Assembly: GCA_903822375.1 (NCBI GenBank)
Contig: CAIJOU010000953.1
Span: 1-41,785, forward strand
Length of the DNA stretch: 41,785 bases
Reading direction: 5' to 3'
Source: Candidatus Hydrogenedentota bacterium
GTDB lineage: Bacteria; Hydrogenedentota; Hydrogenedentia; Hydrogenedentales; CAITNO01
Shown: piece after piece, positions 5,952 to 37,070 of the stretch
How positions within the stretch are numbered: the first letter of the stretch is position 1
Layout: each line of letters begins with the position of its first letter
Notes under the pieces: generated by a model
The model's database searches: none
What the model was told of the DNA's origin: nothing
The model's input: the letters and a program-made list of their open reading frames with translations, nothing else
Program-made: the position numbers and the translations under genes

Positions 5952-6130
5952 GACCCGCACTCCTCTGTTGCACCGTTCCGCAGCACCCAAGTGGTGCGGG
6001 CACCTGCGCTCCGGTATCCGGCGGGGGGCAAACCCGCTCACCTGCCTGCGGATGATATTGAAGGTGAAAAGGCTGGGTGTCAAGCGTGGAAAGTTCGGTA
6101 TGGACCATGCCGTGACACAACATTCCCCTG

Positions 6131-6162
6131 CCGCCTCGCGGCGGTTTTCCCCCTTCGAAGGG
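6131..6162. repeat. Intergenic palindromic element, family 2 copy (hairpin CCGCC-TCGC-GGCGG followed by CCCTTCGAAGGG)
   Basis: Lies between two same-strand genes (stop 6213, start 5951). Shares the CCCTTCGAAGGG palindrome and an adjacent GC hairpin with the element at 15681-15779. Confidence 0.6.
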
Positions 6163-6212
6163 AGATTTGGGCCTGCCGCGACGGCCGGACTCCATGCGTT
6201 GTTCAAGGATGA

Positions 6213-7893: not shown

Positions 7894-9072
7894 ATGAAGG
7901 AAGTAGTGGCGGTATCCGGGGTGAGAACGGCGATTGGCACTTTTGGCGGGACCCTGCGGGACACCCCCGCCCCCGAACTGATGGGGCTTGTCATCAAGGA
8001 GGCGATACGCCGGGCTGGCGTTCCGCCCGAGGCGGTGGGCGAGGTCATCGTGGGCCAGTGCATGCAGCGCCTGGATGAGATAGTGACGGGCCGGCTTTCG
8101 GCGCTCAAGGCCGGACTGCCGATTACCGTGCCGGGCGTGACAATACACCGCAACTGCGCTTCGGCGATGCAGTCGCTGATCTACGGGGCGCAGCAGATCA
8201 TGCTGGGCGACCAGGAGATCGTGGTGGCCGGCGGGGTGGAGGTGATGAGCCGCACGCCGCACACGCTGGACCAGGCGCGCTGGGGCGGCAAGCTGCAGCA
8301 CGGGCTTCTGACCGACGGGATCCTGGTGGGGCTGACGGACCCGTCGTGCGGACTGATCATGGGCATCACGGCGGAGAATCTGGCGGAGAAATACAACATC
8401 TCCCGGGAGGAGCAGGACGAGATTGCCTGCCGCTCGCACAAAAACGCCGAGGCCGCGACCAACGCCGGCAAGTTTAAGGACGAGATACTTCCCGTCGAAA
8501 TCCCGCAGAAGAGGGGCGATCCCGTCGTGTTCGACAAGGACGAGCATTTCCGTCCCGGCACGACGCTGGCCCAACTCGCCAAGTTGAAACCGTCGTTCAA
8601 GCCGGACGGCACGGTGACGGCCGGCAACGCCGCCGGCATCAACGACGGTGCGGCGGCCATGGTTCTCATGAGCGCCGACAAGGCCCGGGAACTGGGCATC
8701 ACGCCGATCGCCAAACTGCGCGGCTACGGCCTGGCGGGGGTGGAGCCGGAGTTGATGGGATACGGACCGGTGCCGTCGACGAAGCAGGCCCTCGAACGCA
8801 CGGGTCTCAAGATGTCGGACATCGAGTTGATCGAGCTGAACGAGGCGTTCGCCGCGCAGTATCTCGCCTGCGAGAAGCTCATGGGCTTCAAGCGGGACAT
8901 TGCCAATGTGAACGGGTCCGGCATTGCCCTGGGCCATCCGGTGGGCTGCACGGGCGCGCGGATCATCATCACGCTGCTGAACGAGATGAGGCGCCGCGGC
9001 AACAGCCTCGGGCTCGCCACGCTGTGCGCCGGTGGCGGCATGGGCATGAGCACGATCTGGGAGATGAACTAG
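7894..9072 (+). CDS. Acetyl-CoA C-acetyltransferase (thiolase II family)
   Basis: 392 aa, RBS GGAGAG upstream. N-terminus MKEVVAVSGVRTAIGTFGG. Active-site Cys context HRNCASAMQS. C-terminal NGSGIALGHPVGCTGARI and LCAGGGMGMS motifs. Confidence 0.95.
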   Translation: MKEVVAVSGVRTAIGTFGGTLRDTPAPELMGLVIKEAIRRAGVPPEAVGEVIVGQCMQRLDEIVTGRLSALKAGLPITVPGVTIHRNCASAMQSLIYGAQQIMLGDQEIVVAGGVEVMSRTPHTLDQARWGGKLQHGLLTDGILVGLTDPSCGLIMGITAENLAEKYNISREEQDEIACRSHKNAEAATNAGKFKDEILPVEIPQKRGDPVVFDKDEHFRPGTTLAQLAKLKPSFKPDGTVTAGNAAGINDGAAAMVLMSADKARELGITPIAKLRGYGLAGVEPELMGYGPVPSTKQALERTGLKMSDIELIELNEAFAAQYLACEKLMGFKRDIANVNGSGIALGHPVGCTGARIIITLLNEMRRRGNSLGLATLCAGGGMGMSTIWEMN

Positions 9073-19720: not shown

Positions 19721-20235
19721 GATGCGCTCCTCCTCATGTTGGGGTTGTGTCGTCGGTCCGAGTGTCCCAAACGACCTGAGAAGAGCATAGCAGGTGGCGG
19801 CGGGGTGTGTGAAGCGAAGCATAACGTCCCGGCGCCGGGCGCAGCGGGAACTGAAACGGTCTCCTCCAGGCCCGCGCCGGCGGACCCGGCTGCGGGCCCC
19901 GGCGGCCATGGTTCGCGCCGAATTTGTTTCCGCGCGTGCAGCCGTTCGCACAGGCTTCTTTCCTGGGACCATAATGGAGGTCCCTGTCAGCAAGGCGAAT
20001 ACGGCCGTGTTCTGCGCGGGGTTGGCATTTGCCGACCTCCGGGCTGAGGTGGGACGAAACATTGGAACCGGAACGCCCTGCACGTCGAATTTGCGGTGGA
20101 AAAGAGGCCGGATGGGCGGAGGTGAATGCGGACAGTTGCTTGGAGTAATATAAGGTCTGAGATGCGCCTCTTCCGGCGTCACAATGGTCTTGGGAACAGT
20201 TGGAGTCTATTTCAAAACAAAAGGTAGGCAGATCC

Positions 20236-23200
20236 ATGAAAATGTATCTCTATGTTCTCGGTGTTCTAGTGCTTGCGGCCGTTTTGGGGATTGGCAGCGG
20301 CTGCCAGCCGGGCGAACCGGTGCCCGTGCCGGATCTGGTCGGCCACACCCAGGTGGATGCGGTCTTGGCGCTCGACGCCGCGGGACTCGTTCTGGGGACG
20401 GTGACCGAGCAATACAGTGAGAATGTTGCCGAAGGGTTGGTGATTAGCCAAATGCCTGCATTCGGAAATTTCCTGGTGCCGGGCGAGGCTGTGGATCTGG
20501 TGCTTTCCAAGGGTCTCCATCCCATGGTTGTGCCCGATGTTGTCGGGCAAACCCAACTCTCTGCAACCCTCGCGATTATTCACGCTCATCTGATTGTGGG
20601 AGAGGTGACCAGGCAGTACGATGCCACGGTTCCATCAGGAAGTGTGGTCAGTCAGAATCCCGCGGCGGGCGCGTCATTGGAAGCCGGCATGGGAGTGGAT
20701 TTGGTTTTGTCCAGGGGGCCGCAGCCCGTGACCGTGCCGAATGTGGTGGGCATGACCCAGGCAGCGGCGGATTCAGCGATAGTCGCCGCCGGTCTTGTTG
20801 CGGGTGCGGTGACCAATCAGTACAGCGCCACAATCCCCGCGGGCGAGGTCATCGACCAGACGCCGGCGGCGGGCGCGATCGTGCCTGGGGGTACTGTGGT
20901 GGCCCTCGTTGTTTCCAAGGGCCCGCAGCCTGTGACCGTGCCGAATGTGGTGGGCATGACCCAGGCGGCGGCGGGCACGGCAATAACCGGCGCGGGACTC
21001 ACCGCGGGTGCGGTGACCCAGCAGTACAGCGGCACCGTTCCCTCAGGCAGTGTCATCAGCCAGACACCGGTGGCGGGCGCAAGCGCGCTTCCCGGCACCG
21101 CGGTGGACCTCGTTGTTTCCAAGGGTCCCCAACCCGTGACCGTGCCGGATGTTGTGGGCATGACCCAGTCAGCGGCGGGAACGGCGATAGTCGGTGCGGC
21201 CCTCTACGTGGGTGAGGTGACCCAGCAGTACAGCGCCACCGTCCCCTCAGGCCAGGTTGTCAGCCAGACACCGGCGGCGGGCACGGTCGTGCTTCCGGGA
21301 ACCATGGTGGACCTCGTTGTTTCCAAGGGCCCCCAACCTGTAACGGTTCCGGGCGTGGTGGGCGTGACCCAGGCGGCCGCGAGTACGGCGATAATCAATG
21401 CGGGGCTTACGGTGGGCGCCGTGACCCAGCAGTACAGCGCCACGGTTCCTGCCGGCAATGTCATCAGTCAGGCACCGTTGGCGGGCGCGAGCGCGCTTCC
21501 GGGCACTGCGGTGGCCCTGGTTGTTTCCAGGGGTCCGCAGCCTGTGACGGTTCCGAACGTGGTCGGCATGACCCAGGCGGCGGCGGGCACGGCGTTAACC
21601 GGTGCGGGACTTGCGGTGGGCGCCGTGACCCAGCAGTACAGCGCCACGGTTACTTCGGGTAATGTCATCAGTCAGGCACCGTTGGCGGGCGCGAGCGCGC
21701 TTCCGGGCGCTGCGGTGGCCCTCGTTGTTTCCATGGGCCCGCAGCCTGTGACGGTTCCGAACGTGGTCGGCATGACCCAGGCGGCGGCGGGCACGGCCAT
21801 AACCAGTGCGGGACTCACGGTGGGTGCCGTGACCCAGCAGTACAGCGCTTCGGTCCCCACCGGGAAAGTCATCAGTCAGGTACCGTTGGCGGGCGAGAGC
21901 GCGCTTCCGGGCGCTGCGGTGGCCCTCGTTGTTTCCAAGGGTCCGCAGCCGGTGACGGTTCCGGACGTGGTGGGCGTGACCCAGGCAACGGCCGGTACGA
22001 TGATAACCACCGCGGGACTTGTGGTGGGTGCGGTGACGGAGCAATACAGCGCCACGGTCCTGTCGGGCAGAGTGATCAGCCAGAACCCGCTTTCGGGCGC
22101 AAGCGTCCTTCCGGGCACCGCGGTGGCCCTTGTTGTTTCCAAGGGCCCGCAGCCCGTTACCGTGCCGAATGTGGTCGGCATGACCCAGGCGGCGGCGGGC
22201 ACCGCGATAGCCAACGCGACACTTGCGTTGGGTGCGGTGACGGAGCAGTACAGCGCCACCGTCGCCGCCGGCAATGTCATCAGTCAGGACCCGATTTCGG
22301 GTACAAGCGTGCTTCCGCACACTGCGGTGGCCCTCGTTGTTTCCAAGGGCCCGCAGCCCGTTGCCGTGCCGGACGTGGTCGGCATGACCCAGGCGGCGGC
22401 GGGTACGGCGATAACCAATGCGGGACTTGTGGTCGGTTCGGTGACCGAGCAGTACAGCGCCACGGTTGCCTCGGGCAATGTTATCAGTCAGTCGCCGCTT
22501 GCGGGCGAGAGCGCGCTTCCGGGCGCTGCGGTGGACTTGGTTGTTTCCAAGGGCCCGCAGCCCGTGTCCGTGCCGGACGTGGTCGGCACGCCGCAGGCAA
22601 CCGCCGAAGCCACAATCGTCGGCGCAAGCCTCGCGGTGGGCGTGGTGACCACGCAGTATAGCGACACCGTTGCCTCGGGCAATGTCATCAGCCAGTCGCC
22701 GCTTGCGGGCGCGAGTGAGCTTCCGGGCACCCCGGTGGACTTGGTTGTGTCCCTTGGAATCAGACCCGTGCCGGACGTGGTCGGTCTGCCGCAGGCGACT
22801 GCCGAAGCCGCAATCACCGGCGCCAACTTCACAGTGGGTGCGGTGAGCACGCATTACAGCAGCACCGTTGCCGCGGGCAATGTCATCAGTCAGTTCCCGC
22901 TTGCGGGCGCGTTTGAGGTTTCGGGCACCCCGGTGGACTTGGTCGTGTCCCTCGGGCAGGCACCCGTTCCGAACGTGGTCGGCATGACGCAGGCGGCCGC
23001 CGAAGCGGCAATTGTCGCCGCCGACTATACGGTGGGTGTGGTGACAAAGGACTACAGCGCCACCGTTCCCGCTGGCAATGTCATCAGCCAGAACCCGGTT
23101 GCGGACACGCCTGTGCCGCCGGGCGCCCCGGTGGACCTGGTCATATCCCTTGGCCCGCATCCCGTGACCGTGCCGGACGTGGTGGGCATGGCCCAGGCGG

Positions 23201-26200
23201 CCGCCGGAAGCGCAATCACCGGCGCGGGGCTCACAGTGGGCTCGGTGAGCACCGAGTATAGTGTGACAGTCCCCGCGGGCGATGTCATCAGCCAGTCCCC
23301 GCTTGCGGGCGACAGTGTCCTGCCGGGCACCCCGGTGGACTTGGTCGTGTCCCTCGGACACCCACTCGTTCCGGATGTCGTCGGCCTGTCTCAGGCGGCC
23401 GCCGAGACGGCCATCTTGGCCGCCGACTTCACCGTGGGTGCGGTGACAGACCAGTACAGCACCACCGTCCCCGCGGGCAGCGTCGTCAGCCAGTCCCCGC
23501 TTGCGGGTGCCAGCGCCACTTCCGGCACCCCGGTGGACTTGGTAATATCTCTTGGTCCTGAGCCCGTGACCGTGCCGGACGTGGTGGGCATGGCCCAGGC
23601 AGCCGCCGGAAGCGCAATCACCGGTGCTGGACTTGTGGTGGGCGTTGTGACCCTGCAGTACAGCGACACGGTTGCGGCGGGCGATGTCATCAGTCAAAAC
23701 CCGCTTGCAGGGGAGACAGCGCTTACAGGCTCCGCAGTGGACCTCGTTGTCTCCAACGGCCCGCAGCCCGTGCTTGTGCCGAACGTGGTGGGCATGACCC
23801 AGGCGGATGCCGAGGTTGCGATCATCGCCGCGGGGCTCGCCACGGGTACGGCAACCCAAGCGTTCAGCGCCACCGTCCCGGTGGGCGATGTCGTCAGCCA
23901 GTCCCCGCTTGCGGGAACAGGCGTCCTTCCGGGCTCCGCAGTCGACTTGGTTGTGTCCAAGGGGCCGCAGATGGTGACCGTTCCAATTCTGGTGGGTCTG
24001 ACCATCAATGATGCGATTGTGGCGATATTAACCGCAGGGCTCACCACGGGTGCGGTGACGCAGGTGTACAGCGAAACTGTTCCCGCGGGCTATGTAATCA
24101 GCCAAAGCCCGCTTGCAGGCGCAAGTGTGCCGCTGGGCTCTGCGGTGGATGGGGTTCTCTCCCTGGGGCCGCAGCCGCGCGTGACCGTGCCGGATGTGGT
24201 CGGCACGCTGCAGGCCACCGCCGAAAGCACCATCACCGGCGCGGGGCTTACGGTGGGCACGGTGACCACGCAGTACAGCCCCACGATCGCCGCAGGCAAT
24301 GTCATCAGCCAGTCTCCGCTTGCGGGTGCCAGCGTCCTGTCGGGCGCTCCGGTGGACTTGGTAGTGTCCCTTGGGCCTGCGCCCGTGCCGGACGTGGTGG
24401 GTCTGCCTCAGGCCACCGCCGAAGCCGCAATCGTCGCTGCCGACTACACGGTGGGCTCGGTGACCCTGGAGTATAACCTCACCGTTCCCACGGGCAACGT
24501 CATCAGTCAATCCCCGCTTGCGGGCGTGATCGAGCTTCCAGGCACTCCGGTGGATTTGGTGGTGTCCCTTGGGCCCAAACCCGTGGTCGTGCCGGACGTG
24601 GTGGGTACCCCGCAGGCAGCCGCAGAAGCCGCCATCATCGGCGAGGGCCTTACGGTGGGCACGGTGACCCAGGAGTACCACGCCACAGTCCCGGCAGGCA
24701 ATGTTATTAGCCAGTCGCCGGTTGGGGGTACAACCGCCCTGTCGGGCGATCCGGTGGCCTTGGTCGTGTCCCTTGGGCATGCGCCCGTGCCGGACGTGGT
24801 CGGTATGACGCAGGCGGCCGCCGAAGCCGCAATCGTCGCTGCCGACTATACGGTGGGTACGGTGACCACGGCGTACAGCGCCAGCGTCCCTGTTGGCGAT
24901 GTCATCAGCCAGAACCCGGTTGCGAACACGCCCGTGCCGCCGGCTACTCCGGTGGCCCTGGTAGTCTCCCTGGGTCCCCAGCCTGTTCCCGTGCCGGATG
25001 TGGTGGGCGAGCCGAAGGATTTCGCCGAAGCCACAATCGTCACCGCGGGGCTCACCGTGGGCACGGAGACTGGGCAGTATAGTGACACGGTCGATGTAGA
25101 TACTGTCATCAGCCAGAATCCGGTAGCTCTCACGCTTGTACTGCCGGGCTCCCCGGTGGACTTGGTCGTGTCTCTCGGACCCCTGACGGTGCCGAACTTG
25201 TTCAATCTGCCTCTGGCGGACGCCACGACCGCGCTCACCGACCTCGGTTACGTGGTGGGCGTGGTGACTGACGCGTACAGCCCCACCATCCCCGTCGGCA
25301 ACGTCATCAGCCAGGACCCGCTTGCGGGGTGGATCGAACCGGTGGGTACCTCGGTGGACTTGGTACTGTCCAAGGGGCCTGAGCCCGTGCCCGTGCCGAA
25401 TGTGGTCGGCCTGCCGCAGGCAGGCGCCGAAAGCCTTATTACCGGCGCCGGACTTGTGAGAGGTACGGTCACCACGCAGTACAGTGACACCATTCCTTCG
25501 GGCAGTGTCATCAGCCAGGCCCCGCTCGCGGGCATCATTGTTATGCCGGGCACCCCGGTGGACTTTGTCGTGTCCCTTGGGTTCGTGCCCGTGCCGGACG
25601 TTGTCAGCCTCCCGCAGGCAACTGCCGAAAGCACAATCGTCGCCGCCGGCTACACGGTGGGCAACGTGAGCACGCAGTACAGCAGCACTGTTCCGGCGGG
25701 CACTGTTATCGGCCAGAATCCGCTTGCGGGCACGCCCTTGCCGCCGGGCACACCGGTGGACCTGACCGTATCCCTTGGACCTCAGCCCATACCCGTGCCG
25801 GACGTGGTCGGAATGCTGCAGGCAACCGCCGAATCCACCATACTCAGCGAGGGATTCACGGAGGGCGTGGTCACGGAGCAGTACAGCGCCACCGTCGTGG
25901 CGGGCAATGTGATCAGCCAGAACCCGCTTGCGGGAGCGCTTGAGCTTCCGGGCACTGTGGTCGCCTTGGTCGTGTCCAAAGGGCCCGAGCCCGTGACCGT
26001 TCCGGATGTGGTGGGCCTGCCGGAGGCAGGCGCCGAAGGCGTAATTACCGCTGCGGGGCTCACGGTGGGAATTGTGACCGATGACTACAGCATCACGGTC
26101 CCCTTGGGCGACGTGATCAGCCAATCCCCGTCTGCGGGCAACAGTGTGCTGCCAGGCGTCTCAGTGGACTTGATTGTGTCCAAGGGGCCGGAATTGGTGA

Positions 26201-26805
26201 GTGTTCCGGACTTGACGGGCCTGTCCAGTGCTGACGCGTATTCGACACTACTCGCCGCACGGCTTGCCTTGGGTGTGGTGACGCAGGGATACAGCGACAC
26301 GGTTCCCGTGGGTTTCGTGATTAGCCAAAGCCCGTTTGCTGGCGCGCTTGTGCTGGTCGGCACCGCGGTGGACGGCGTTCTATCCCTGGGACCTGAGCCC
26401 ACCGTGCCGGACGTGGTCAATATGCTGCAGGTGGATGCGGAAAACGCAATTACCGGAGCGGGACTTACGGTGGGTACGGAAAGCGAGGACTATAGCGACA
26501 CAGTCCCCGCGGGCCAGGTCATCAGTCAGGACCCGCTTGCCGGAGACAGGGTCCCGCCGGACACGCCGGTGAACCTCGTTGTGTCCATGGGGCCCGAGCC
26601 CGTGACCGTGCCGGACGTGGTCGGCATGCAGCAGGCGGATGCGGAAAACGCGATTATCGGAGCGGGACTCAATGTGGGTACCGAAAGTTCGGAGAATAAC
26701 GACACAGTCCCCGCGGGCGAGGTCATCAGCCAAGACCCAGTAGGTGGCGACAGTGTTCCGCCGGGCTCGCCGGTGAACATCGTTGTGTCCTTGGGGTCCG
26801 TGTAG
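20236..26805 (+). CDS. Giant envelope protein: signal/lipobox-like N-terminus followed by 32 tandem PASTA domains, with no other domain
   Basis: ATG 20236 gives MKMYLYVLGVLVLAAVLGIGSGC. The remaining 2,159 aa tile exactly into 32 units of 65-69 aa, each with the PASTA pattern VPxVVGxxxxxAxxxIxxAGLxxGxVTxxYSxTVxxGxVISQxPxAGxxxxxGxxVxLVVSxG. Confidence 0.92.
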   Translation: MKMYLYVLGVLVLAAVLGIGSGCQPGEPVPVPDLVGHTQVDAVLALDAAGLVLGTVTEQYSENVAEGLVISQMPAFGNFLVPGEAVDLVLSKGLHPMVVPDVVGQTQLSATLAIIHAHLIVGEVTRQYDATVPSGSVVSQNPAAGASLEAGMGVDLVLSRGPQPVTVPNVVGMTQAAADSAIVAAGLVAGAVTNQYSATIPAGEVIDQTPAAGAIVPGGTVVALVVSKGPQPVTVPNVVGMTQAAAGTAITGAGLTAGAVTQQYSGTVPSGSVISQTPVAGASALPGTAVDLVVSKGPQPVTVPDVVGMTQSAAGTAIVGAALYVGEVTQQYSATVPSGQVVSQTPAAGTVVLPGTMVDLVVSKGPQPVTVPGVVGVTQAAASTAIINAGLTVGAVTQQYSATVPAGNVISQAPLAGASALPGTAVALVVSRGPQPVTVPNVVGMTQAAAGTALTGAGLAVGAVTQQYSATVTSGNVISQAPLAGASALPGAAVALVVSMGPQPVTVPNVVGMTQAAAGTAITSAGLTVGAVTQQYSASVPTGKVISQVPLAGESALPGAAVALVVSKGPQPVTVPDVVGVTQATAGTMITTAGLVVGAVTEQYSATVLSGRVISQNPLSGASVLPGTAVALVVSKGPQPVTVPNVVGMTQAAAGTAIANATLALGAVTEQYSATVAAGNVISQDPISGTSVLPHTAVALVVSKGPQPVAVPDVVGMTQAAAGTAITNAGLVVGSVTEQYSATVASGNVISQSPLAGESALPGAAVDLVVSKGPQPVSVPDVVGTPQATAEATIVGASLAVGVVTTQYSDTVASGNVISQSPLAGASELPGTPVDLVVSLGIRPVPDVVGLPQATAEAAITGANFTVGAVSTHYSSTVAAGNVISQFPLAGAFEVSGTPVDLVVSLGQAPVPNVVGMTQAAAEAAIVAADYTVGVVTKDYSATVPAGNVISQNPVADTPVPPGAPVDLVISLGPHPVTVPDVVGMAQAAAGSAITGAGLTVGSVSTEYSVTVPAGDVISQSPLAGDSVLPGTPVDLVVSLGHPLVPDVVGLSQAAAETAILAADFTVGAVTDQYSTTVPAGSVVSQSPLAGASATSGTPVDLVISLGPEPVTVPDVVGMAQAAAGSAITGAGLVVGVVTLQYSDTVAAGDVISQNPLAGETALTGSAVDLVVSNGPQPVLVPNVVGMTQADAEVAIIAAGLATGTATQAFSATVPVGDVVSQSPLAGTGVLPGSAVDLVVSKGPQMVTVPILVGLTINDAIVAILTAGLTTGAVTQVYSETVPAGYVISQSPLAGASVPLGSAVDGVLSLGPQPRVTVPDVVGTLQATAESTITGAGLTVGTVTTQYSPTIAAGNVISQSPLAGASVLSGAPVDLVVSLGPAPVPDVVGLPQATAEAAIVAADYTVGSVTLEYNLTVPTGNVISQSPLAGVIELPGTPVDLVVSLGPKPVVVPDVVGTPQAAAEAAIIGEGLTVGTVTQEYHATVPAGNVISQSPVGGTTALSGDPVALVVSLGHAPVPDVVGMTQAAAEAAIVAADYTVGTVTTAYSASVPVGDVISQNPVANTPVPPATPVALVVSLGPQPVPVPDVVGEPKDFAEATIVTAGLTVGTETGQYSDTVDVDTVISQNPVALTLVLPGSPVDLVVSLGPLTVPNLFNLPLADATTALTDLGYVVGVVTDAYSPTIPVGNVISQDPLAGWIEPVGTSVDLVLSKGPEPVPVPNVVGLPQAGAESLITGAGLVRGTVTTQYSDTIPSGSVISQAPLAGIIVMPGTPVDFVVSLGFVPVPDVVSLPQATAESTIVAAGYTVGNVSTQYSSTVPAGTVIGQNPLAGTPLPPGTPVDLTVSLGPQPIPVPDVVGMLQATAESTILSEGFTEGVVTEQYSATVVAGNVISQNPLAGALELPGTVVALVVSKGPEPVTVPDVVGLPEAGAEGVITAAGLTVGIVTDDYSITVPLGDVISQSPSAGNSVLPGVSVDLIVSKGPELVSVPDLTGLSSADAYSTLLAARLALGVVTQGYSDTVPVGFVISQSPFAGALVLVGTAVDGVLSLGPEPTVPDVVNMLQVDAENAITGAGLTVGTESEDYSDTVPAGQVISQDPLAGDRVPPDTPVNLVVSMGPEPVTVPDVVGMQQADAENAIIGAGLNVGTESSENNDTVPAGEVISQDPVGGDSVPPGSPVNIVVSLGSV
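20326..26802 (+). repeat. In-frame coding tandem repeat array, 32 units of 195-207 bp (one PASTA domain each)
   Basis: Units 1-11 (20326-22569) have an exact 204-bp period; for example GTTTCCAAGGG recurs every 204 bp from 20911 to 22543. Later units are mostly 198 or 204 bp, with 207-, 201- and 195-bp exceptions. The summed unit lengths (2,159 aa) account for every residue after the signal peptide. Confidence 0.95.
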
Positions 26806-28910: not shown

Positions 28911-29009
28911 ATTTAATTGTACCGCAGCGCGCGGTGGAATGCAACCCCAACGGGGTGCACAAGTGTAAAGGGTGTGGAAAACTGCATACCGGACCCGTCG
29001 CGTGGTAAA

Positions 29010-29918
29010 ATGGCGCGCATGGATTCATGCATCGTCATGGAGAACGTCACCAAGCGGTACGGGCGCACGGTGGCGGTGGGGGATCTCTCCCTTGAAGTCC
29101 GTCGGGGCGAGGTGCTGGGACTGCTCGGGCCAAACGGTGCCGGCAAGAGCACAACCATCGGCATGCTCAGCGGTTTGATCCGCCCCAGTTCGGGCCGCAT
29201 TTCCGTGTTCGGCCTCGACCTTGTCCGCAACCGCATCGACATCGCCCGCCGCATGGGCGTGCTGGTCGAACGTCCCGCCTTTCCTGAATATCTTTCCGTG
29301 CGGCGCGTGCTCAAGATCCACACGCTGCTGGCCGGCTCGAACGCCTCGGTGGAGTCGGTCATGGCGCGCACCGGGCTGACCCATGTTGCCCGCAGGCATG
29401 TGGGCGCGCTGTCTCAGGGCATGCGCCAGCGTCTCGGCATCGCCCAGGCCATCCTCACCGAGCCCGAACTGCTGGTGCTCGACGAGCCCACCTCGGGACT
29501 GGACGTGGAGGGCACGCGGGACACGCTGCGCTTTCTGCGCCGCCTGTGCAACGAGGCGGGGGTGACCATTGTGTTCTCCAGCCACCAGATGCAGGAAGTG
29601 GAGGCGTTGTGCGACCGCGTGGCCATTCTCAACGAGGGCGGACTGGTTGCCTGCGAGGAAAAGGAAACACTGCTTTCCTGGGACCTGAGTGAAGTGGACC
29701 TTCTGGTGGACCGTCCGGACGAGGCCGCCGTCCAGCTTGCCGGACTCGGCTGGGTCGTCTCGGTGGATGTGAGACCGGGCGGCCTTCATGTTCATTTGGA
29801 GGGCCCCAAGTCCGACGAACTGACGGCCTGGCTGATCGGAAGGGGTTTCCGGGTTTCCGGTGTGGTGCCGCACCGGCGCACGCTTGAGGACTACTTCCTG
29901 AGGGTCACCGAACCATGA
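29010..29918 (+). CDS. ABC transporter ATP-binding protein (ABC-2/DrrA-CcmA-like exporter type)
   Basis: Walker A GPNGAGKST, Q-loop, signature LSQGMRQRL, Walker B LLVLDEPTSGLD, H-loop SSHQM. C-terminal domain of about 90 aa. The start is ambiguous (ATG 29010, 29019 or 29037) and there is no clear SD. Confidence 0.9.
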   Translation: MARMDSCIVMENVTKRYGRTVAVGDLSLEVRRGEVLGLLGPNGAGKSTTIGMLSGLIRPSSGRISVFGLDLVRNRIDIARRMGVLVERPAFPEYLSVRRVLKIHTLLAGSNASVESVMARTGLTHVARRHVGALSQGMRQRLGIAQAILTEPELLVLDEPTSGLDVEGTRDTLRFLRRLCNEAGVTIVFSSHQMQEVEALCDRVAILNEGGLVACEEKETLLSWDLSEVDLLVDRPDEAAVQLAGLGWVVSVDVRPGGLHVHLEGPKSDELTAWLIGRGFRVSGVVPHRRTLEDYFLRVTEP

Positions 29919-30706
29919 TCGCGCGGGTCCTGCGGGCATATATGGCCGAGTTGATCAAGGGATTCCGGCTCCGGCAGGCGTGGGCGGGCCCCCTGGTGCT
30001 GATGGTCGTGCTGGCCGCCGCGCCGATTATGCGCCCCATCGCGCACGACGGCCGCAGCGATTACGATTTCATTGCCCTTGTCACCCCGGCCACACTCAAC
30101 CTGCTCGGTTTTCTGCTGCTGCTGTCGGGGTGCGCGAGCCTTGTGGCTCCGGAGATTGGCGGGGGCTCCATAAGGCTGTTCCTGGTCCGCCCCATTCGGC
30201 GCAGCGAGTATCTGCTCGCAAAGTTCATGGCCGGGGCAAGCTATGCCGCGCTGCTGACGGGGATTACCGCCGCGGGCTCCTGGAGCATGGCCTGGGCGAT
30301 GGGCGAGTTGCATGGGGTGGCCTTCGGCGGCGAACTGGTTTACACGAACGAGTCCATGGCCGAAGCCTATCTGGTCGGTGCCGCGCTCAGCCTGTTTCCC
30401 ATGCTCGCCGGGGTGGCCTGCGCGCTGCTCGCTTCGGTCTGCGCCCGCAGTTCAGGCACGGCCGTGACCGTGTCTGTGGGCCTTTGGCTGTGCGTGGACA
30501 TGATCAAGCATCCGCTCGGCATTGATGCCTATGTGTTCACCACCTACCTGGAGGCACCCTGGCAGGTGTTTGTGAACCGCTGCGACGGCCTTGACGCGGC
30601 ATGGTGGCCCATGGCCGGATGGTGCGCCGGCGTGTCGATCTGCACAGCCATTCCGGCCTTTGCACTGGCGGTGCTCGTGCTCCACCGAAGGAATTTCTCC
30701 GCATGA
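29915..30706 (+). CDS. ABC-2 family transporter permease
   Basis: 263 aa with about six hydrophobic helices. Begins with an ATGA overlap on the ATPase stop. N-terminus MIARVLRAYMAELIKGFRLRQAW is typical of NosY/ABC2_membrane-type permeases. Confidence 0.8.
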   Translation: MIARVLRAYMAELIKGFRLRQAWAGPLVLMVVLAAAPIMRPIAHDGRSDYDFIALVTPATLNLLGFLLLLSGCASLVAPEIGGGSIRLFLVRPIRRSEYLLAKFMAGASYAALLTGITAAGSWSMAWAMGELHGVAFGGELVYTNESMAEAYLVGAALSLFPMLAGVACALLASVCARSSGTAVTVSVGLWLCVDMIKHPLGIDAYVFTTYLEAPWQVFVNRCDGLDAAWWPMAGWCAGVSICTAIPAFALAVLVLHRRNFSA

Positions 30707-32187
30707 CCGCCCTCGTGGTTGCCTGCCTTGCGGCGGGGGCAATCACCTTCCAGCCGCAGGAGATGCCGGGCTTGAACGCGGGCCCGATTCTGTCTTTCAC
30801 CGTGCAGCCGTCCGTGAACTACCGTCAGGCGGACATGGACGGCGACGGTCTGGCCGACCTCGTGTTCGACAACGCCCTGTGGCTGCAGCAGGCCGGCCTG
30901 TTTCCCCCGGAACGCCGCCAACTCCTGCCCAAGGAGGCCGTCCGGGCGCTCATGGATGTGGACAACGGGCGGCTCTACTGCATACGTGATGGAAGACTGG
31001 TTGTTTTGCGCTGGCAGGACGGGGCGCTTGCGGCGGAAGTGGACCAGAAACTGGACTGGCCCGCCGATGAGAACGGGTCCAGCGCCGGCCTGGGCCGGTT
31101 TCTCCACGATCTGGACGGAGACCACCAGCCTGAACTCGTCGCCGTGGACGAGCACGGGGTCACGGTCTTTGCCAAGCGTGAAACGGGTTACGTGCAGGCG
31201 GCCCGGATGACCGGCATCCTGCCGGAACTGCGCTATCTTCAGGTTCCGCAGCAGCCTGTATGGCCCAAATCGCGGCGGGCGCTGGCTTTCCCGGCCCGGC
31301 AGGTGGCCTGCGATCTTCTTGTGGACGGACCGTCCCTCTCCATACTCTTTCGCGACCCGGTCCAGGCGGGGCAGTACGTGTTTCAACGGGAGACCCGAAT
31401 GCTCTCCGTCAAGGACGGTGAATATCAGGGGGGCGTGCCGGTGACAGTGCGCAGCGCGCCCGTTCCGGAGCATGTGCGCCCCTGTCGACTCAACGGGGAC
31501 GACATTCCCGACCTCGCCGGCTGCAAACGCGTTGATTCAACGGGCCGCACCGTTCCGGTTTCCATGGTGGAAACATGGGCCAGTCTCGATGACGGCAAAA
31601 CCTTTGACGTGCGCCGCGCCCCCGCAATGGACCGGTTCCTGCCGCAGGTTCCCTTTGTCGATTTCGACGGCGACGGACTGGTGGACATGGTCACCGAATC
31701 CACCAGTCTCTTCGAGGGTGGCACCCGGGAACTGGTGGAGCGCTTCATGACCCGCGCCTCCATCGGCCACACGGTGCGCGTCTATCCGCAGCAGCCCGGC
31801 GGGTTCGCACAAACACCCGCCGTCGAGTTTCAGGTGGAAATCACGCTCGAAGCGCCCCCGTGGCGCGTGCCCCCCATGTATGGCCGGTATCAGGCAGGCA
31901 CGCTCGTGAATGTTTCCGGCGATTTTGACGGTGACGGTCATCGCGACATCGCTGTGCGCGACCATGCCGACCGGGTGGGGGTGTGGCTGGCGCACGGGGG
32001 AACCTTCTTCGCCGCGCCCGATGCCGTGGTGCGCATCGACCCCGCCTCCGAATATGCGGTGGCGGATGTCAACGGCGACGGACGGTCGGATATTATCGAG
32101 ACCTGCGGGGCGGCGTCATCCTCCGCCAGGCCGGGGCGAACGGTGGTGGTCCATTTCGCCGTTTCCGGAAAGGGGGGCACTCCATGA
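30703..32187 (+). CDS. FG-GAP/VCBS-repeat (beta-propeller) protein with a hydrophobic N-terminus
   Basis: ATG 30703 overlaps the permease stop (ATGA). Hydrophobic N-terminus MTALVVACLAAGAI. Repeated Ca-binding-like DxDGDG motifs: DMDGDGLADLV, DLDGDHQPELVAVD, LNGDDIPDL, DFDGDGLVDMV, DFDGDGHRDIAV, DVNGDGRSDII. Confidence 0.8.
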   Translation: MTALVVACLAAGAITFQPQEMPGLNAGPILSFTVQPSVNYRQADMDGDGLADLVFDNALWLQQAGLFPPERRQLLPKEAVRALMDVDNGRLYCIRDGRLVVLRWQDGALAAEVDQKLDWPADENGSSAGLGRFLHDLDGDHQPELVAVDEHGVTVFAKRETGYVQAARMTGILPELRYLQVPQQPVWPKSRRALAFPARQVACDLLVDGPSLSILFRDPVQAGQYVFQRETRMLSVKDGEYQGGVPVTVRSAPVPEHVRPCRLNGDDIPDLAGCKRVDSTGRTVPVSMVETWASLDDGKTFDVRRAPAMDRFLPQVPFVDFDGDGLVDMVTESTSLFEGGTRELVERFMTRASIGHTVRVYPQQPGGFAQTPAVEFQVEITLEAPPWRVPPMYGRYQAGTLVNVSGDFDGDGHRDIAVRDHADRVGVWLAHGGTFFAAPDAVVRIDPASEYAVADVNGDGRSDIIETCGAASSSARPGRTVVVHFAVSGKGGTP

Positions 32188-33587
32188 CCTCCCTGATCTT
32201 TGCCGCATGCGGCTTCTGTTGCGGGGCGCTGTTCTCCCTGCAGACCATACCGGTGGAGCAGCCCGACGCCCAGTGTTTTTTTGCCGAAGCGGACGGCCGG
32301 GGTGGCGGCGACCTGGTGGTCATCGACGGTCGTCAGCTGACCGTGCATGTCGGCGCGGAGACGGGGGGGAAGCTCTCGATTCTGCTGGATCCCGAAAGCT
32401 CCGCCCTGGACATTGCGGACATCGACGGCGACGGCCAGCCGGATCTCGTCGTCGTTGCCGGAGACAGGGTGCTCAAGTACAGTCTGGAACCCACGGCCTC
32501 CCGCGATCCGCAGGTCCTGTTCTCCACGCACAGCCAATTGTCGGCCGCAGCGCCCCGGCCGTTTCCCCATGTGCTGGTGCTTGCACGCGGGGGGCGTCCG
32601 CTCATCGCACTGCCCACCGCGGAAAAGCTGGAACTGCGCGCGCCTTCGGGCGAGTTGGTCGAAAGTCATCCCATCGGCTTGGACGCGGCACACCGCGTCA
32701 GCTTCGGACAGCCCTTCAGTGCGCTTCCCGTTCAGCCCCCGCGCCTGGGCTTGCCCACCGCGCTGGAGTTGCGCGTCATCCAAACCGCCGCATTTGTGCC
32801 CGACCTGCCCGAGGGGCTTGCCCCCTTGGACTCCGGTGTCGCGCAGCAGTTTTCGGGCAGTGTCGCGCAGGCGGCCGTGGCGGCGCGCAAAGACCCGCCC
32901 GAATCCTGGCCGTGGTTCCGCCTGCACCCCTCGGGGGCGCAGGATGACGAGCGCGTGTTCTATGCGTATGACCCCGATGGGGCGCGGGAAACGCTGGTGC
33001 GCGTGCGCCGCGCGCTTCCGCCGGTGGCGGGACGGGGCCGCGAACTCAAGCTTTCTGGTGTCCAGCGCTATCCGGGCATGGCGGTTCCCTGCGCCACAAC
33101 CGTGCCCGATTTCAACGGAGACGGCTATGCCGACCTGCTGTTATGGAACGCCGCCGCCCCGGTGCCCACGGTGGGCGCCATAAGCCGGGCACTGACGGAG
33201 GGATACTGGTCCGTCCGGCTCACCGTGCATTTGTTCGACCCCGCTTCGGGCCGCTATTCCCCCGTTCCCTTTGCGGTCATCCCGTTGCAGGTGCCCGTGG
33301 CCTGGTTTCTGGCCGACCCGGGCAGCCCGCCCGTACGCCATCTGGTTCTGGACGAATTCAACGGCAATGACCGCACCGACCTGCTCTGCGCCACCGCGCC
33401 CGACAAACTGGCCGTCTGGGTGTCCGTTCCCTCGGGCATCCGGCCCGACCCCCTCCAGGTAATACAATTCCCCGGACCCGTCCAGCGGGTCGAACTGCGC
33501 GGTGATCTTGACGGCGAGGGAAGAATTAGTCTTGTGCTCAGCGGCCCGAAGACTTTCTACATTCTCCGCGCCCGCAAGGGCGGGTGA
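32184..33587 (+). CDS. Second FG-GAP/VCBS-repeat-like protein with a hydrophobic N-terminus
   Basis: ATG 32184 overlaps the preceding stop (ATGA). N-terminus MTSLIFAACGFCCGALFSL. Motifs DIDGDGQPDLVVVAGD, DFNGDGYADLLLWN, DEFNGNDRTDLLC, GDLDGEGRISLVL. Confidence 0.75.
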   Translation: MTSLIFAACGFCCGALFSLQTIPVEQPDAQCFFAEADGRGGGDLVVIDGRQLTVHVGAETGGKLSILLDPESSALDIADIDGDGQPDLVVVAGDRVLKYSLEPTASRDPQVLFSTHSQLSAAAPRPFPHVLVLARGGRPLIALPTAEKLELRAPSGELVESHPIGLDAAHRVSFGQPFSALPVQPPRLGLPTALELRVIQTAAFVPDLPEGLAPLDSGVAQQFSGSVAQAAVAARKDPPESWPWFRLHPSGAQDDERVFYAYDPDGARETLVRVRRALPPVAGRGRELKLSGVQRYPGMAVPCATTVPDFNGDGYADLLLWNAAAPVPTVGAISRALTEGYWSVRLTVHLFDPASGRYSPVPFAVIPLQVPVAWFLADPGSPPVRHLVLDEFNGNDRTDLLCATAPDKLAVWVSVPSGIRPDPLQVIQFPGPVQRVELRGDLDGEGRISLVLSGPKTFYILRARKGG

Positions 33588-34459: not shown

Positions 34460-36049
34460 TTACCTTCGCTGCTGCGGTTGCGCGATGGCCAGCCGACGCT
34501 CGGTCCACCGCGCGAGCCGCACGAAGGGAAGGCCGATCAGCAGGTACATGGCGGCCACCAGGATGCCGGTGCCGAAGTAGTCGTAATAGGTCGTCGCAAG
34601 CATGCTGTAGGTCTTGGTCAGTTCGACCATCGTGATCACGGAGACCAGCGACGAATCCTTCAACAGAGAGATGAAATCGTTGGTCACCGGCGGCAGCACC
34701 ACGCGAAACGCCTGCGGTGCGATGACATGCCGGATCGCCTGACCCCGCGTCATGGCAAGGCCCAGTGCCGCCTCCATCTGCGAGTGGGGCACGGCTAGGA
34801 ATCCGGCGCGGTAGTTCTCCGCCTCGTAGGCCGCGTAGTTGAGACCCAGCCCCACAACGCCCGCCCAGAACGGCGAAAAGCGTATGCCAAGAGCGGGAAG
34901 GCCGTAGAAGATGAAGAACAGCTGAATCAGCACGGGTGTGCCGCGGACGACCTCAATGTAGACAGTGGCCAGGATGCCGAGCGGAAAAGGGGCGTACACG
35001 CGGAGGGTGGCAAGGAGGAAGCCAAGCGCCACGGCCAGCAGCATGGCCAGAATGGACACTTCCAGCGTCAGCAGGGCACCCTTGCCGAGGAGCGGCAGAA
35101 AGCCGATGTAGCGTTTCACCCGTTGTTCCAAACCCGACTTGGGCTGGATGTGCTTTACCCATTCGTCGTACATGACGGGTTCGGTGGCGGAGGCGCCGAA
35201 ATCCTGAAACTCGTTGGCTGTGGCTTGGTTCCAGAGATTCCAGCGCTCGAGGATTCTGCGCAGCTCGCCGTTTTGGCGCATCTTCATCAGGACCGCGTTG
35301 ACCTGGTCCAGAAGTTCCTTCTTTTCCTTCGAGAAGGCAAAGCCGTAGGCGATGCGGCTGATCTCCGGCTTGATGAACTTGACCTCGGGCCGCGGTCCGC
35401 CGTAGTACAGCGCGACCGGTGCGTCAAACAGCACGGCGTCGAGCCGTCCGTTGATCAGGTCGTCAAATCCGTTCACCTCGGTCGGATAGGCGCGGATGTC
35501 CGCAACGCCCAGTAAATTCAGCAGGTGAAAGGCACTCGATTCCTTGAGCGTGCCCACCACTTTGCCCCTGCAGTCCGCAACGGTGTTAATCAGAAACTCG
35601 TTTTTGCGCACGCACAACTGGAGGCCCGTGACGCAGTACGGCACGGAGAACAGCACGGCCTCTTCGTGCTCGGGCGTAATCTCCTGGCCCTCGGTGGCCA
35701 TGTCATAGAGATCCCTCGAAAGGCCGGGAATCAGCTTGTCCCAGTCGTTCTGAACCATTACGGGCTTTCGGCCGATTTCCTGGGCAATTGCCTCGATCAC
35801 CTCCACTTCAAAGCCGATCAAACGGCCCGGGCTGCGCCAGTCTTCGAACATGTACGGGAGCCCACCTTCAAGGTCTGTGCCGTAGCGCAGCGTCCCCGCT
35901 TCCGCGGGGGCCGGGTTTGCTTTCGTGGGCTCTTCATTGTGACGTTGGGCGTCCCGGCCCTGCGCCCTTGCGGGGACTGGTCCTGCGCAGCAAGCCAGGA
36001 CAAGCAGGGAAACCAACATCGCTGGTCGGTGGGCGAATGTGTTGGTCAT
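34460..36049 (-). CDS. Amino-acid ABC transporter, fused periplasmic substrate-binding domain + permease
   Basis: Signal/anchor MLVSLLVLACCAGPVPARA. SBP family 3-like region (LRYGTDLEGGLPYMF...GFEVEVIEAIAQEIGRKPVMVQNDWDKLIPGL). His/Glu/Gln/Arg/opine-type permease region (IEVVRGTPVLIQLFFIFYGLP...). ATGA overlap with the upstream ATPase gene. Confidence 0.9.
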   Translation of the reverse strand: MTNTFAHRPAMLVSLLVLACCAGPVPARAQGRDAQRHNEEPTKANPAPAEAGTLRYGTDLEGGLPYMFEDWRSPGRLIGFEVEVIEAIAQEIGRKPVMVQNDWDKLIPGLSRDLYDMATEGQEITPEHEEAVLFSVPYCVTGLQLCVRKNEFLINTVADCRGKVVGTLKESSAFHLLNLLGVADIRAYPTEVNGFDDLINGRLDAVLFDAPVALYYGGPRPEVKFIKPEISRIAYGFAFSKEKKELLDQVNAVLMKMRQNGELRRILERWNLWNQATANEFQDFGASATEPVMYDEWVKHIQPKSGLEQRVKRYIGFLPLLGKGALLTLEVSILAMLLAVALGFLLATLRVYAPFPLGILATVYIEVVRGTPVLIQLFFIFYGLPALGIRFSPFWAGVVGLGLNYAAYEAENYRAGFLAVPHSQMEAALGLAMTRGQAIRHVIAPQAFRVVLPPVTNDFISLLKDSSLVSVITMVELTKTYSMLATTYYDYFGTGILVAAMYLLIGLPFVRLARWTERRLAIAQPQQRR

Positions 36050-36843
36050 TGGATGTCGCGCCCCACGTATTGGCCCAAAAAGCGCCGTGTCCGCTCGTCC
36101 CTGGGTTTCATGAAGATTTCGTCTTCATCCGAAATCTCAACGATTTCGCCGTGTTCCATGTAGATGATGTAGTCCGAGGCGTTGCGCGCAAAGCGCATTT
36201 CGTGCGTCACGATGACCTGGGTCATCCCGTCCCGGTCAAGGCCGCGCATCACCTCCAGCACCTCGTCGACCAGTTCCGGATCAAGCGCCGAGGTGGGTTC
36301 GTCGTAAAGCATCACCCTGGGGTTCATGGCCAGTGCGCGCGCAATGGCGGCGCGCTGCTGCTGCCCGCCGGACAGGTGGTGGGGGTAACGGTCCCTGTGC
36401 TTGAGGAGGCCGACCTTTTCAAGCAGGTGCAGGGCGTTGTCTCTTGCGGCCTCGCGCGTCTCCCTCTTCACGATCATCGGCGCCAGCATGATGTTTTCCT
36501 GGATGGTCTTGTGCGGAAACAGGTTCAGTGACTGGAAGACCATGCCCACCTCGCTGCGCAACCTGTGGGCCCGTTCGTGGAAGGCGTGATTGGTGTGCTC
36601 GCGCCTGCTGGCGCGTTCCAGCGTCACCCCCGCCACGGCAATGCGTCCGGAGTCCAGCATCTCGAGACAGTTCAGACAGCGCAGCAGCGTGGACTTGCCG
36701 CAGCCCGAAGGCCCGATGATGGACACCAGGTCCCCCTCCGCGATGGTGAGGTTGATGTCCCTGAGGACGGGGGGGCCGTCATAGCTCTTGAACAGGTGCT
36801 CCACGGAAATCAGCGGAGCGGCCGGGGGGGCGGCTTCACGCAT
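36046..36843 (-). CDS. Amino-acid ABC transporter ATP-binding protein (GlnQ/HisP-like)
   Basis: ATG 36843 is preceded by AAGGAG. Walker A GPSGCGKST, signature LSGGQQQRAAIARAL, Walker B VMLYDEPTSALD, H-loop VTHEM. The 29 upstream codons in the track ORF are not needed. Confidence 0.93.
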   Translation of the reverse strand: MREAAPPAAPLISVEHLFKSYDGPPVLRDINLTIAEGDLVSIIGPSGCGKSTLLRCLNCLEMLDSGRIAVAGVTLERASRREHTNHAFHERAHRLRSEVGMVFQSLNLFPHKTIQENIMLAPMIVKRETREAARDNALHLLEKVGLLKHRDRYPHHLSGGQQQRAAIARALAMNPRVMLYDEPTSALDPELVDEVLEVMRGLDRDGMTQVIVTHEMRFARNASDYIIYMEHGEIVEISDEDEIFMKPRDERTRRFLGQYVGRDIQ

Positions 36844-37070
36844 GAGCCGGTCTCCTTTCGCGATGGGAAAATCCTTTCGGGGCCGCAACGAATCCTGCGA
36901 AAAGATACGCGGCCGCGCGACGGGTGTCAAGGATAATCACGCCTTCTCTCCGTTTCCGCCATGCTTCGTGTGGACCGGGCAAGCGCTTTTGGATGGTGGC
37001 CGCCGCAAGGCGGTCGGGAATGTTGCATGCGCGTATGCAATGCCGCCACAGGCAGGCGGCGGCTTGCCCG

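Follow-up and report, generated by a model that had tools for sequence, protein, structure and literature searches.

A predicted Hydrogenedentota lipoprotein of 32 PASTA units as a candidate headless envelope stalk

Results

We analysed a 41,785-nucleotide (nt) stretch of DNA, contig CAIJOU010000953.1 of a Candidatus Hydrogenedentota bacterium (hereafter the window), which encodes a protein made of 32 consecutive PASTA domains (Table 1). With moderate confidence, we read this protein as a lipid-anchored, extended and acidic stalk or fibre on the cell envelope that bears no head. A motif scan placed 32 PASTA units, with periods of 66–69 amino acids (aa), from residue 31 to the last residue without a gap; a preliminary description of the same DNA had reported 32 gap-free units, of 65–69 aa, behind a signal peptide and lipobox. 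The per-repeat comparison with the Pfam family PF03793 that it had proposed gave 32 stretches (1353.9 bits) and no other credible family; scanned singly, the eight most divergent units scored 43.9–65.7 bits against a cut-off of 23.2. Pfam detected no Pkinase, transpeptidase (PF00905) or pedestal domain in the protein. The NCBIfam match, NF033483 (PknB_PASTA_kin), was confined to the PASTA part of that profile (positions 364–563), indicating that no kinase is present. The protein thus lacks a kinase, transpeptidase or other catalytic domain, as had been claimed, and no downstream frame restores one. With a 22-aa signal peptide, PASTA from residue 31 and no catalytic domain, it is neither a PASTA kinase nor a protein of the PBP2x type.

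Amino-acid identity between units averages 0.60 (range 0.38–0.85) and DNA identity 0.67 (0.50–0.90), and the units are old paralogues. Net charge per unit is about 0 to −3 in R3–R11, the block that also holds the longest exact repeat of the gene (21535 vs 21739), and −2 to −8 in the diverged block R12–R30; R31 and R32 are the most acidic units (−10 and −9). Over much of R12–R30 the unit lengths alternate between 66 and 68 aa, most linkers read SLGPxP, and R19 and R30 form a related pair. The mature protein holds 25 Lys+Arg (1.1%), 147 Asp+Glu, one Trp and one Cys. V, A, G, T, P and S account for 69% of its residues, a composition that looks typical of an exported structural protein.

Tandem repeats are error-prone in short-read metagenome assemblies, and many other assemblies of the same organism are fragmented around this locus. 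An array that assembly had expanded, collapsed or chimerically joined is nevertheless extremely improbable. The longest exact DNA repeat in the coding sequence is 59 nt, so each unit is unique at the 141-nt k-mer scale (a length suggested by the ‘k141’ contig names), the closest two units are just 90% identical over 204 nt, and the frame is unbroken. Differences between units average 0.50 at synonymous sites (pS) and 0.27 at nonsynonymous sites (pN), and the ratio of nonsynonymous to synonymous substitution rates (dN/dS) is 0.2–0.76 for the closer pairs. Together, the diverged units, the short exact repeats and dN/dS below 1 make an assembly stutter unlikely and speak against the assembly expansion that the preliminary description had worried about. 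Records of the identical protein also come from more than one contig, one of 41,785 and one of 69,934 nt, and the thiolase and histidine-kinase proteins of these two differ slightly.

The N-terminus, MKMYLYVLGVLVLAAVLGIGSG followed by Cys23, has K2 in its n-region, a 19-residue hydrophobic core (YLYVLGVLVLAAVLGIG) and an I-G-S-G-C lipobox. We checked it against the PROSITE PS51257-type lipobox rule, which we take to be [LIVMFWSTAG]2-[LIVMFYSTAGCQ]-[AGS]-C with the Cys at position 15–35, a basic n-region and a hydrophobic core. Basic n-region, core and lipobox are all there, and we predict that Cys23 of the PASTA-array protein is acylated. Much the same lipobox N-termini occur in the relatives P0015 (…AAVLGIGGGC), P0006, P0037, P0066, P0096 and P0113, where P-numbers denote the best 120 of 826 protein matches at E<=1e-10 and L-numbers, used below, related genome loci. 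That of P0015 (MNKFLRGIVVVMSAAVLGIGGGC) bears a close likeness to the N-terminus of the window protein.

A four-repeat structure prediction, proposed in the preliminary description, was run with AlphaFold2 on R6–R9, using an alignment of 29 overlapping four-unit windows. The model has a mean predicted local distance difference test (pLDDT) score of 96.5 and a predicted template modelling score (pTM) of 0.66, and the Pro-rich linkers are confidently modelled. Each unit has one helix and three strands (H9–18, E22–29, E38–43, E55–61) and hence the PASTA fold, an alpha-helix on a three-stranded beta-sheet in ~65–70 aa; a single-domain structure match is 3ouv (template modelling score, TM, 0.90; root mean square deviation 1.3 Å). 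Foldseek and phmmer searches of the PDB returned linear kinase-type ectodomains first, namely Staphylococcus aureus PrkC (3py9/3m9g) and Mycobacterium tuberculosis PknB (5e12/2kui/5e10), with 3–4 domains aligned, whereas the compact PASTA pairs of PBP2x and PBP1 aligned poorly to the model (TM ~0.2). The PASTA arrays of the kinases are linear and regular (PMC3601408). Extrapolated from the model, a similarly extended geometry may hold over all 32 units. A PASTA domain in PknB and PrkC spans ~3.5–4 nm, at which spacing 32 units would reach roughly 100 nm or more. Since the predicted arrangement resembles the linear PknB and PrkC rods, the length of the protein would greatly exceed the width of a periplasm, in line with the earlier suggestion.

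The window protein is not the singular architecture it had been taken for. Public databases already hold a large class of giant PASTA-array proteins under the automatic label ‘PASTA domain-containing protein’. The best 120 of the 826 matches are 1,200–3,800 aa long, and a 50%-identity representative library contains 3,749 clusters at E<=1e-30 to a one-unit profile. Named sources of relatives are Sedimentisphaerales, Planctomycetota, Hydrogenedentes and Limisphaerales; Nitrospira, Terriglobia, Competibacter and Steroidobacteraceae come in from the species-representative genomes. Most of the top-ranking genome loci matched by the PASTA protein belong to Hydrogenedentota, and several PASTA-array paralogues occur within single Hydrogenedentota metagenome-assembled genomes (MAGs). 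The window itself also points to this phylum: named relatives of its thiolase (7894–9072) at 75–86% identity are almost all Candidatus Hydrogenedentes/Hydrogenedentota, so the host is as far from Firmicutes and Actinobacteria as had been supposed. The copy number is indeed far above that of the classical architectures, but 32 is not the maximum, since a hidden Markov model built from the window’s 32 units counts up to ~40, 40, 38, 37, 36, 34 and 34 units in relatives. Compared with the giant PASTA proteins of Hydrogenedentota, Sedimentisphaerales/Planctomycetota, Nitrospira and Terriglobia (P0003, 3,655 aa; P0006; P0015; P0026), whose arrays of 10–40 units are 37–63% identical to it, the window protein shares the N-terminal signal peptide or lipobox and the position of the array next to the anchor. 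It differs in that nearly all of them carry an extra head or C-terminal module of 100–1,700 aa.

At least 100 aa of non-PASTA sequence flank the array on one or both sides in 100 of the 120 best relatives. Two layouts recur. In layout A, a signal peptide, often with a lipobox, is followed at once by the PASTA array and then by a C-terminal head (FGE-sulfatase+DUF7507 in P0006, PKD in P0015 and LTD+CHB_HEX+CotH in P0066, by Pfam); the order signal peptide, array, C-terminal part is seen in 22/120, and the array directly follows the lipobox in P0006, P0015, P0037, P0066, P0096 and P0113. Layout B begins with a signal peptide and an N-terminal head, continues with the array and closes with a short C-terminal module; 31/120 show an N-terminal part, the array and a short C-terminus. 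The C-terminal module of layout B combines an EF-hand pair, a Cys-rich motif, a hydrophobic helix and an RRR tail (P0026, P0057, P0120, P0071), and looks like a sorting or anchor tag; NCBIfam returned no match to a named sorting domain in this Cys-rich, transmembrane and RRR tag. Laminin_G_3 and EF-hand are further Pfam-confirmed heads among the relatives, and precomputed annotations add RHS/YD toxins, FG-GAP/VCBS and many other head families. In both layouts the array is placed between an anchor and a variable head, which is stalk-like behaviour.

Among the relatives examined, the window protein is the sole visibly complete one that has a signal peptide and in which non-PASTA sequence amounts to less than 100 residues. 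Export signal, long array and adjacency of array and anchor are all present, and the head is absent; we file the protein as a headless variant of what we informally call the PASTA-stalk class. Other PASTA-only candidates in the representative library, with ~100% PASTA coverage, were set aside as fragments cut at both ends or as having doubtful termini. P0003, P0004, P0007, P0009 and others are listed as ‘PF03793 only’, yet have an unannotated C-terminal region of ~370 aa.

Several further observations concern the class. The ~370-aa C-terminal region, which ends in a dockerin-like D-x-D-x-D…NWL, is common to P0003, P0004, P0007, P0009, P0012, P0013 and P0038, and a ~110-aa C-terminal module with the Cys-rich motif GCFGC or GCGCGC recurs in P0026, P0022, P0057, P0025, P0120 and P0071. 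Two Nitrospira/Nitrospiraceae loci (L018 3–13501 and L021 4433–19606) each contain four tandem paralogous PASTA genes, whose products have up to ~90 aa of N-terminal non-PASTA sequence, 5–14 PASTA units and then ~562 aa of C-terminal sequence; the PASTA-stalk gene family has expanded locally here. P0008 (L084 4523–15108; 3,035 aa, ~36 PASTA units) has a Pro/Asp-rich N-terminus without a signal peptide and a C-terminal DUF8575, and its gene adjoins a stand-alone DUF8575 gene; it is a different subclass of giant PASTA protein. A precomputed label, PF28393.1, is attached to P0001 (the public call of the window gene), P0006, P0026, P0052 and P0078; it is absent from the Pfam copy searched. Our literature search found nothing relevant on giant or stand-alone PASTA arrays in Planctomycetes, the phyla of the Planctomycetes–Verrucomicrobia–Chlamydiae group or Hydrogenedentes, and nothing relevant on the Hydrogenedentota envelope, and it turned up no account of giant PASTA arrays in hosts other than Gram-positives; the PASTA-mentioning papers PMC7159879 and PMC12516126 deal with other architectures.

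The + strand open frame spans 20200–26805, and its best start, ATG 20236, gives a 2,189-aa protein; the public gene call, 100% identical, starts two codons downstream and is 2,187 aa long. The terminus (…VVSLGSV) follows directly after the last strand of unit 32, and no continuation of the PASTA protein was found in any downstream frame. Between the stop codon and the convergent downstream gene, a B12-binding radical-SAM gene, lies a perfect palindrome, AATATCCCCCGGC GTT GCCGGGGGATATT, which is probably a bidirectional terminator. Given this strong hairpin behind the stop codon, the gene end is genuine and no C-terminal domain has been lost. Loss of a kinase or penicillin-binding protein (PBP) domain by frameshift was likewise ruled out, there being no downstream frame and a terminator in place. 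A decaying remnant of a stalk-plus-head gene, its head deleted and its product functionless, would fit a protein that, set among its 120 best relatives, is alone in being visibly complete yet headless, and also the lack of a close orthologue (nearest relative 59% identical; a 90% cluster of one member). We consider this very unlikely, as the 6.6-kb frame is intact, mean pS exceeds mean pN, dN/dS stays at 0.2–0.76, all 32 units pass the Pfam threshold, the protein ends cleanly at a domain boundary before a strong terminator, and two contigs carry the same sequence.

A protein that binds peptidoglycan or muropeptides multivalently, either periplasmic along the sacculus as a scaffold or ruler, or surface-exposed and capturing foreign peptidoglycan (necromass, prey walls), is an unlikely explanation. 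PASTA is the classical module for binding muropeptides, lipid II and beta-lactams (PMC6428115), the window units are of the kinase type, and high multivalency could offset weak single sites. At the level of residues, the muropeptide-binding idea of the preliminary description fares poorly: Pro in 32/32 units, never a complete SK..NQ and 1.1% basic residues. For PrkC of Bacillus subtilis we used what we take to be its sequence, 648 aa with Arg500 in ITLRDLK (the length and the Arg at 500 are consistent); aligned by the x-P-D-x-x-G motif, Arg500 falls on unit position 2. This position is the Pro of all 32 units, and its flanks are never R or E (position 1 is V in 32/32, position 3 is D, N, G or I). 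In PASTA domains that bind, strand beta'1 ends in Arg or Glu, as in PrkC with Arg500, and non-binders carry Pro (PMC7654742, PMC3601408); the window units are thus in the published non-binder state, and none has the Arg or Glu of a PrkC PASTA3-type binder.

The muropeptide and lipid II site of PknB lies in the linker between PASTA3 and PASTA4 (Ser556-Lys557, Asn559-Gln560; PMC6428115). Aligning that linker, VSKGNQFVMPD, with the window’s VSKGPQPVTVPD sets S556-K557-G-N559-Q560 against S-K-G in 12/32 window linkers and S-K-G-P-Q in 8/32; the Asn is missing from all 32 and the full PknB site is present in none. Muropeptide recognition by PrkC uses Arg, whereas the window protein has 25 basic residues per 2,167 aa; of the three PASTAs of PrkC only one is a muropeptide binder, and the published view is that binding is ‘not an intrinsic property’ of PASTA (PMC3601408). 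Taken together, the absent signatures and near-absent basic residues weaken the case for a PrkC- or PknB-like binding mode; these binder rules rest on very few characterised domains, and the absent signatures do not exclude peptidoglycan binding. Two further points count against a binder: in relatives the same arrays are joined to toxins, lectins and enzymes of the kinds found in secreted proteins, and a ~100-nm rod cannot stand upright in the periplasm.

The PASTA gene looks monocistronic, since the xylose-isomerase-like gene upstream of it runs divergently and has its probable start near 19720 (MIELGMH), which would leave ~515 nt of non-coding DNA in between. Its G+C content at third codon positions, 0.76, is near the values of three neighbours (0.75–0.79), with 0.875 in the thiolase gene. 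Genes around it encode glycoside hydrolase-like, sugar-isomerase TIM-barrel and radical-SAM proteins, ATP-binding cassette (ABC) transporters, FG-GAP/VCBS proteins, a PKD+FGE-sulfatase protein and a PocR-PAS hybrid kinase, and suggest no operon-level link to the PASTA gene. Searching 24 window proteins against 79 related loci with tblastn recovered no conserved synteny, just generic histidine-kinase, ABC and FGE-sulfatase similarities. Two antisense open reading frames (ORFs) inside the PASTA gene, 21595–23859 (−; 754 aa) and 24028–26124 (−; 698 aa), have no family matches and are shadow ORFs of the G+C-rich repeat. Rfam and tRNA scans of the window were empty.

Among the neighbours, the gene at 4881–6206 (−) encodes a stand-alone PKD+FGE-sulfatase protein of 441 aa. 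With the C-terminal head (L001 9303–9962) of P0006, a 24-PASTA lipoprotein from a Hydrogenedentes MAG, it shares 60% identity, as it does with a stand-alone paralogue in the same locus (L001 17535–18560). The stretch 28917–33587 (+) encodes an ABC ATPase and an ABC-2 permease, together with two FG-GAP/VCBS (TcdB_toxin_midN-like) proteins from tandem genes, which other assemblies call at 494 and 467 aa. At 34460–36049 (−), a single ORF fuses SBP_bac_3 and BPD_transp_1 (a family-3 solute-binding protein and an ABC permease), and its ATPase follows at 36046–36930.

These genes supply the candidates for a stalk whose head is encoded separately, a two-polypeptide version of the fused architecture in which the acidic R31–R32 would dock the PKD+FGE-sulfatase protein or the FG-GAP/VCBS proteins non-covalently. 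Such an arrangement would draw on the 60% identity to the P0006 head, on the two FG-GAP/VCBS genes lying 4–7 kb downstream of the PASTA gene, on FG-GAP/VCBS heads fused to PASTA arrays in P0035, P0080 and P0095, and on tip units that form a distinct and very acidic pair. We assign it a low probability: the candidates lie 14 kb and 4–7 kb away in other transcription units, one of them on the opposite strand, the genomes compared often contain FGE-sulfatase paralogues, the window FG-GAP proteins have no BLASTP match (E<=1e-8) to the 120 listed relatives, fused heads included, and no docking module was detected.

Table 1. Coordinates of the PASTA-array gene and its parts in the window
Feature	Position	Strand	Detail
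Shine-Dalgarno-like AAAGGTAGG	20220..20228	+	7 nt before ATG 20236; direct sequence reading
Whole PASTA-array coding sequence, including stop codon	20236..26805	+	2,189 aa; mature 2,167 aa, ~210 kDa, isoelectric point ~4.05
Predicted type II (lipoprotein) signal peptide, aa 1–22, MKMYLYVLGVLVLAAVLGIGSG	20236..20301	+	From the sequence, with the lipobox pattern as we take it to be
Cys23, predicted lipidated first mature residue	20302..20304	+	Sole Cys of the mature protein
Seven-residue tether QPGEPVP, putative lipid anchor to first PASTA unit	20305..20325	+	From the sequence
PASTA units R1–R2, membrane-proximal, divergent	20326..20733	+	<=63% DNA identity to any other unit; 49.2 and 48.2 bits
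PASTA units R3–R11, homogeneous 68-aa block	20734..22569	+	S[KRM]GPQPV[TAS]VP linkers; mostly 75–90% inter-unit DNA identity
PASTA units R12–R30, diverged block	22570..26403	+	Two motif variants, GAGLTVG and AADYTVG; units 66–69 aa
PASTA units R31–R32, distal tip pair	26404..26802	+	Mutual DNA identity 83%; 65.7 and 65.1 bits
Palindromic G+C-rich hairpin, 13-bp stem, 3-nt loop	26899..26927	.	Beyond the PASTA stop codon, before the convergent radical-SAM gene

Discussion

The reading that we favour would work as follows. The protein would be exported by Sec as a lipoprotein and acylated at Cys23, after which a seven-residue tether and a string of 32 rigidly linked PASTA beads would make up the whole mature chain. 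The product would be a semi-rigid, highly acidic filament whose Cys-free beads should be stable to disulfide chemistry and offer few trypsin-type cleavage sites. Its PASTA domains would be structural spacers, comparable to the PASTAs that serve as a ‘ruler’ in StkP and PknB. The protein itself would act on the envelope as a fibril, a brush or a spacer, located most plausibly at the cell surface, and not as an enzyme or sensor. Surface exposure or a fibre role, both raised in the preliminary description, thus gives the most coherent reading. The protein would be a headless member of a large uncharacterised class in which the array may serve as a stalk that joins a variable functional head to a membrane anchor, the latter being an N-terminal lipid or a C-terminal transmembrane helix with an Arg-rich tail. 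Beyond Hydrogenedentota, the hosts of this class belong to several mostly Gram-negative-type lineages.

The PASTA kinases (M. tuberculosis PknB, S. aureus/B. subtilis PrkC/Stk1, Streptococcus pneumoniae StkP) share the Pfam family and provide the closest structures (3py9, 3m9g, 2kui, 5e12). Like the window protein they are head-to-tail linear beads with S-x-G-P-x linkers, and most of their units also act as spacer or ruler rather than as ligand binders (PMC3601408, PMC6428115, PMC7654742). PknB needs a particular total length of its PASTA array (PMC6428115), and PASTAs 1–3 of StkP form a ruler (PMC7654742). The kinases have 3–4 units, a transmembrane helix and a Hanks-type kinase domain, whereas the window protein has 32 units, an N-terminal lipid (predicted) and no kinase, comes from a Hydrogenedentota and not a Gram-positive host, and lacks both the Arg/Glu binder residue and a complete SK..NQ. 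Class B PBPs (S. pneumoniae PBP2x, S. aureus PBP1, B. subtilis PBP2B) belong to the same domain family, and PBP2x and PBP2B share with the window units the Pro at the non-binder position (PMC7654742). Unlike the window protein, class B PBPs have a transpeptidase domain and compactly packed PASTA pairs (TM ~0.2 to the model).

A looser analogy is offered by the rod-like stalks of giant surface adhesins, such as the G5-E repeats of SasG/Aap, the BIg stalks of RTX adhesins and the ‘periscope’ proteins. By analogy, the window protein would resemble them as a long tandem array of small beta-rich domains projecting from an anchor, but their folds are unrelated to PASTA and the window protein has no adhesive head. 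Foldseek matches to SasG/Aap were weak and non-significant (E>0.2), giving no support beyond the common elongated shape. We also rejected a periscope-type protein of variable length: near-identical DNA repeats permit copy-number change in periscope proteins, and the window array has no such repeats (unit DNA identity mean 0.67, maximum 0.90; longest exact repeat 59 nt).

Several points weigh against a headless surface stalk. To our knowledge, the experimentally known PASTA ligands are only peptidoglycan-derived (muropeptides, lipid II, beta-lactams) or divisome/hydrolase proteins, which makes a peptidoglycan-related role the default expectation for PASTA. Part of the proposed PknB ligand site is kept in the S-K-G (12/32) and S-K-G-x-Q (8/32) linkers. 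The modelled geometry covers four units only, R6–R9; the lipidation and outer-surface sorting are predictions, and we infer the extracellular location of the class from the types of domain fused to its arrays. Finally, a stalk with a bare tip has no obvious function. Surface location and a fibre or spacer role would nevertheless account best for the window protein.

A broader reading is possible, if rather doubtful: PASTA arrays may be an unrecognised and widespread surface stalk of environmental lineages other than the Gram-positive hosts (Hydrogenedentota, Sedimentisphaerales, Nitrospira, Terriglobia), comparable to the Ig-like or G5-E rods of adhesins, with the 32-unit, ~100-nm brush capturing foreign peptidoglycan or other polymers multivalently. 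If this were true, a domain regarded as a cell-wall sensor of Gram-positive bacteria would have been converted to structural and capture use outside the cell.

Conclusions

The usual teaching on PASTA is of a short C-terminal module with which Gram-positive PBPs and Ser/Thr kinases sense the cell wall. Here the same fold is put to quite another use, in arrays of 10–40 beads that would be anchored by a lipid or a transmembrane helix and that come with toxins, lectins or enzymes and, in the window protein, with nothing. The headless protein is the simplest object on which to test what a PASTA array does alone, in rigidity, length and binding, although the whole PASTA-stalk class is a more interesting unit of discovery than the single protein. 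If these arrays are surface stalks, they would be a new envelope building block in phyla without cultured models and a caution against annotating ‘PASTA’ as ‘peptidoglycan-binding’.

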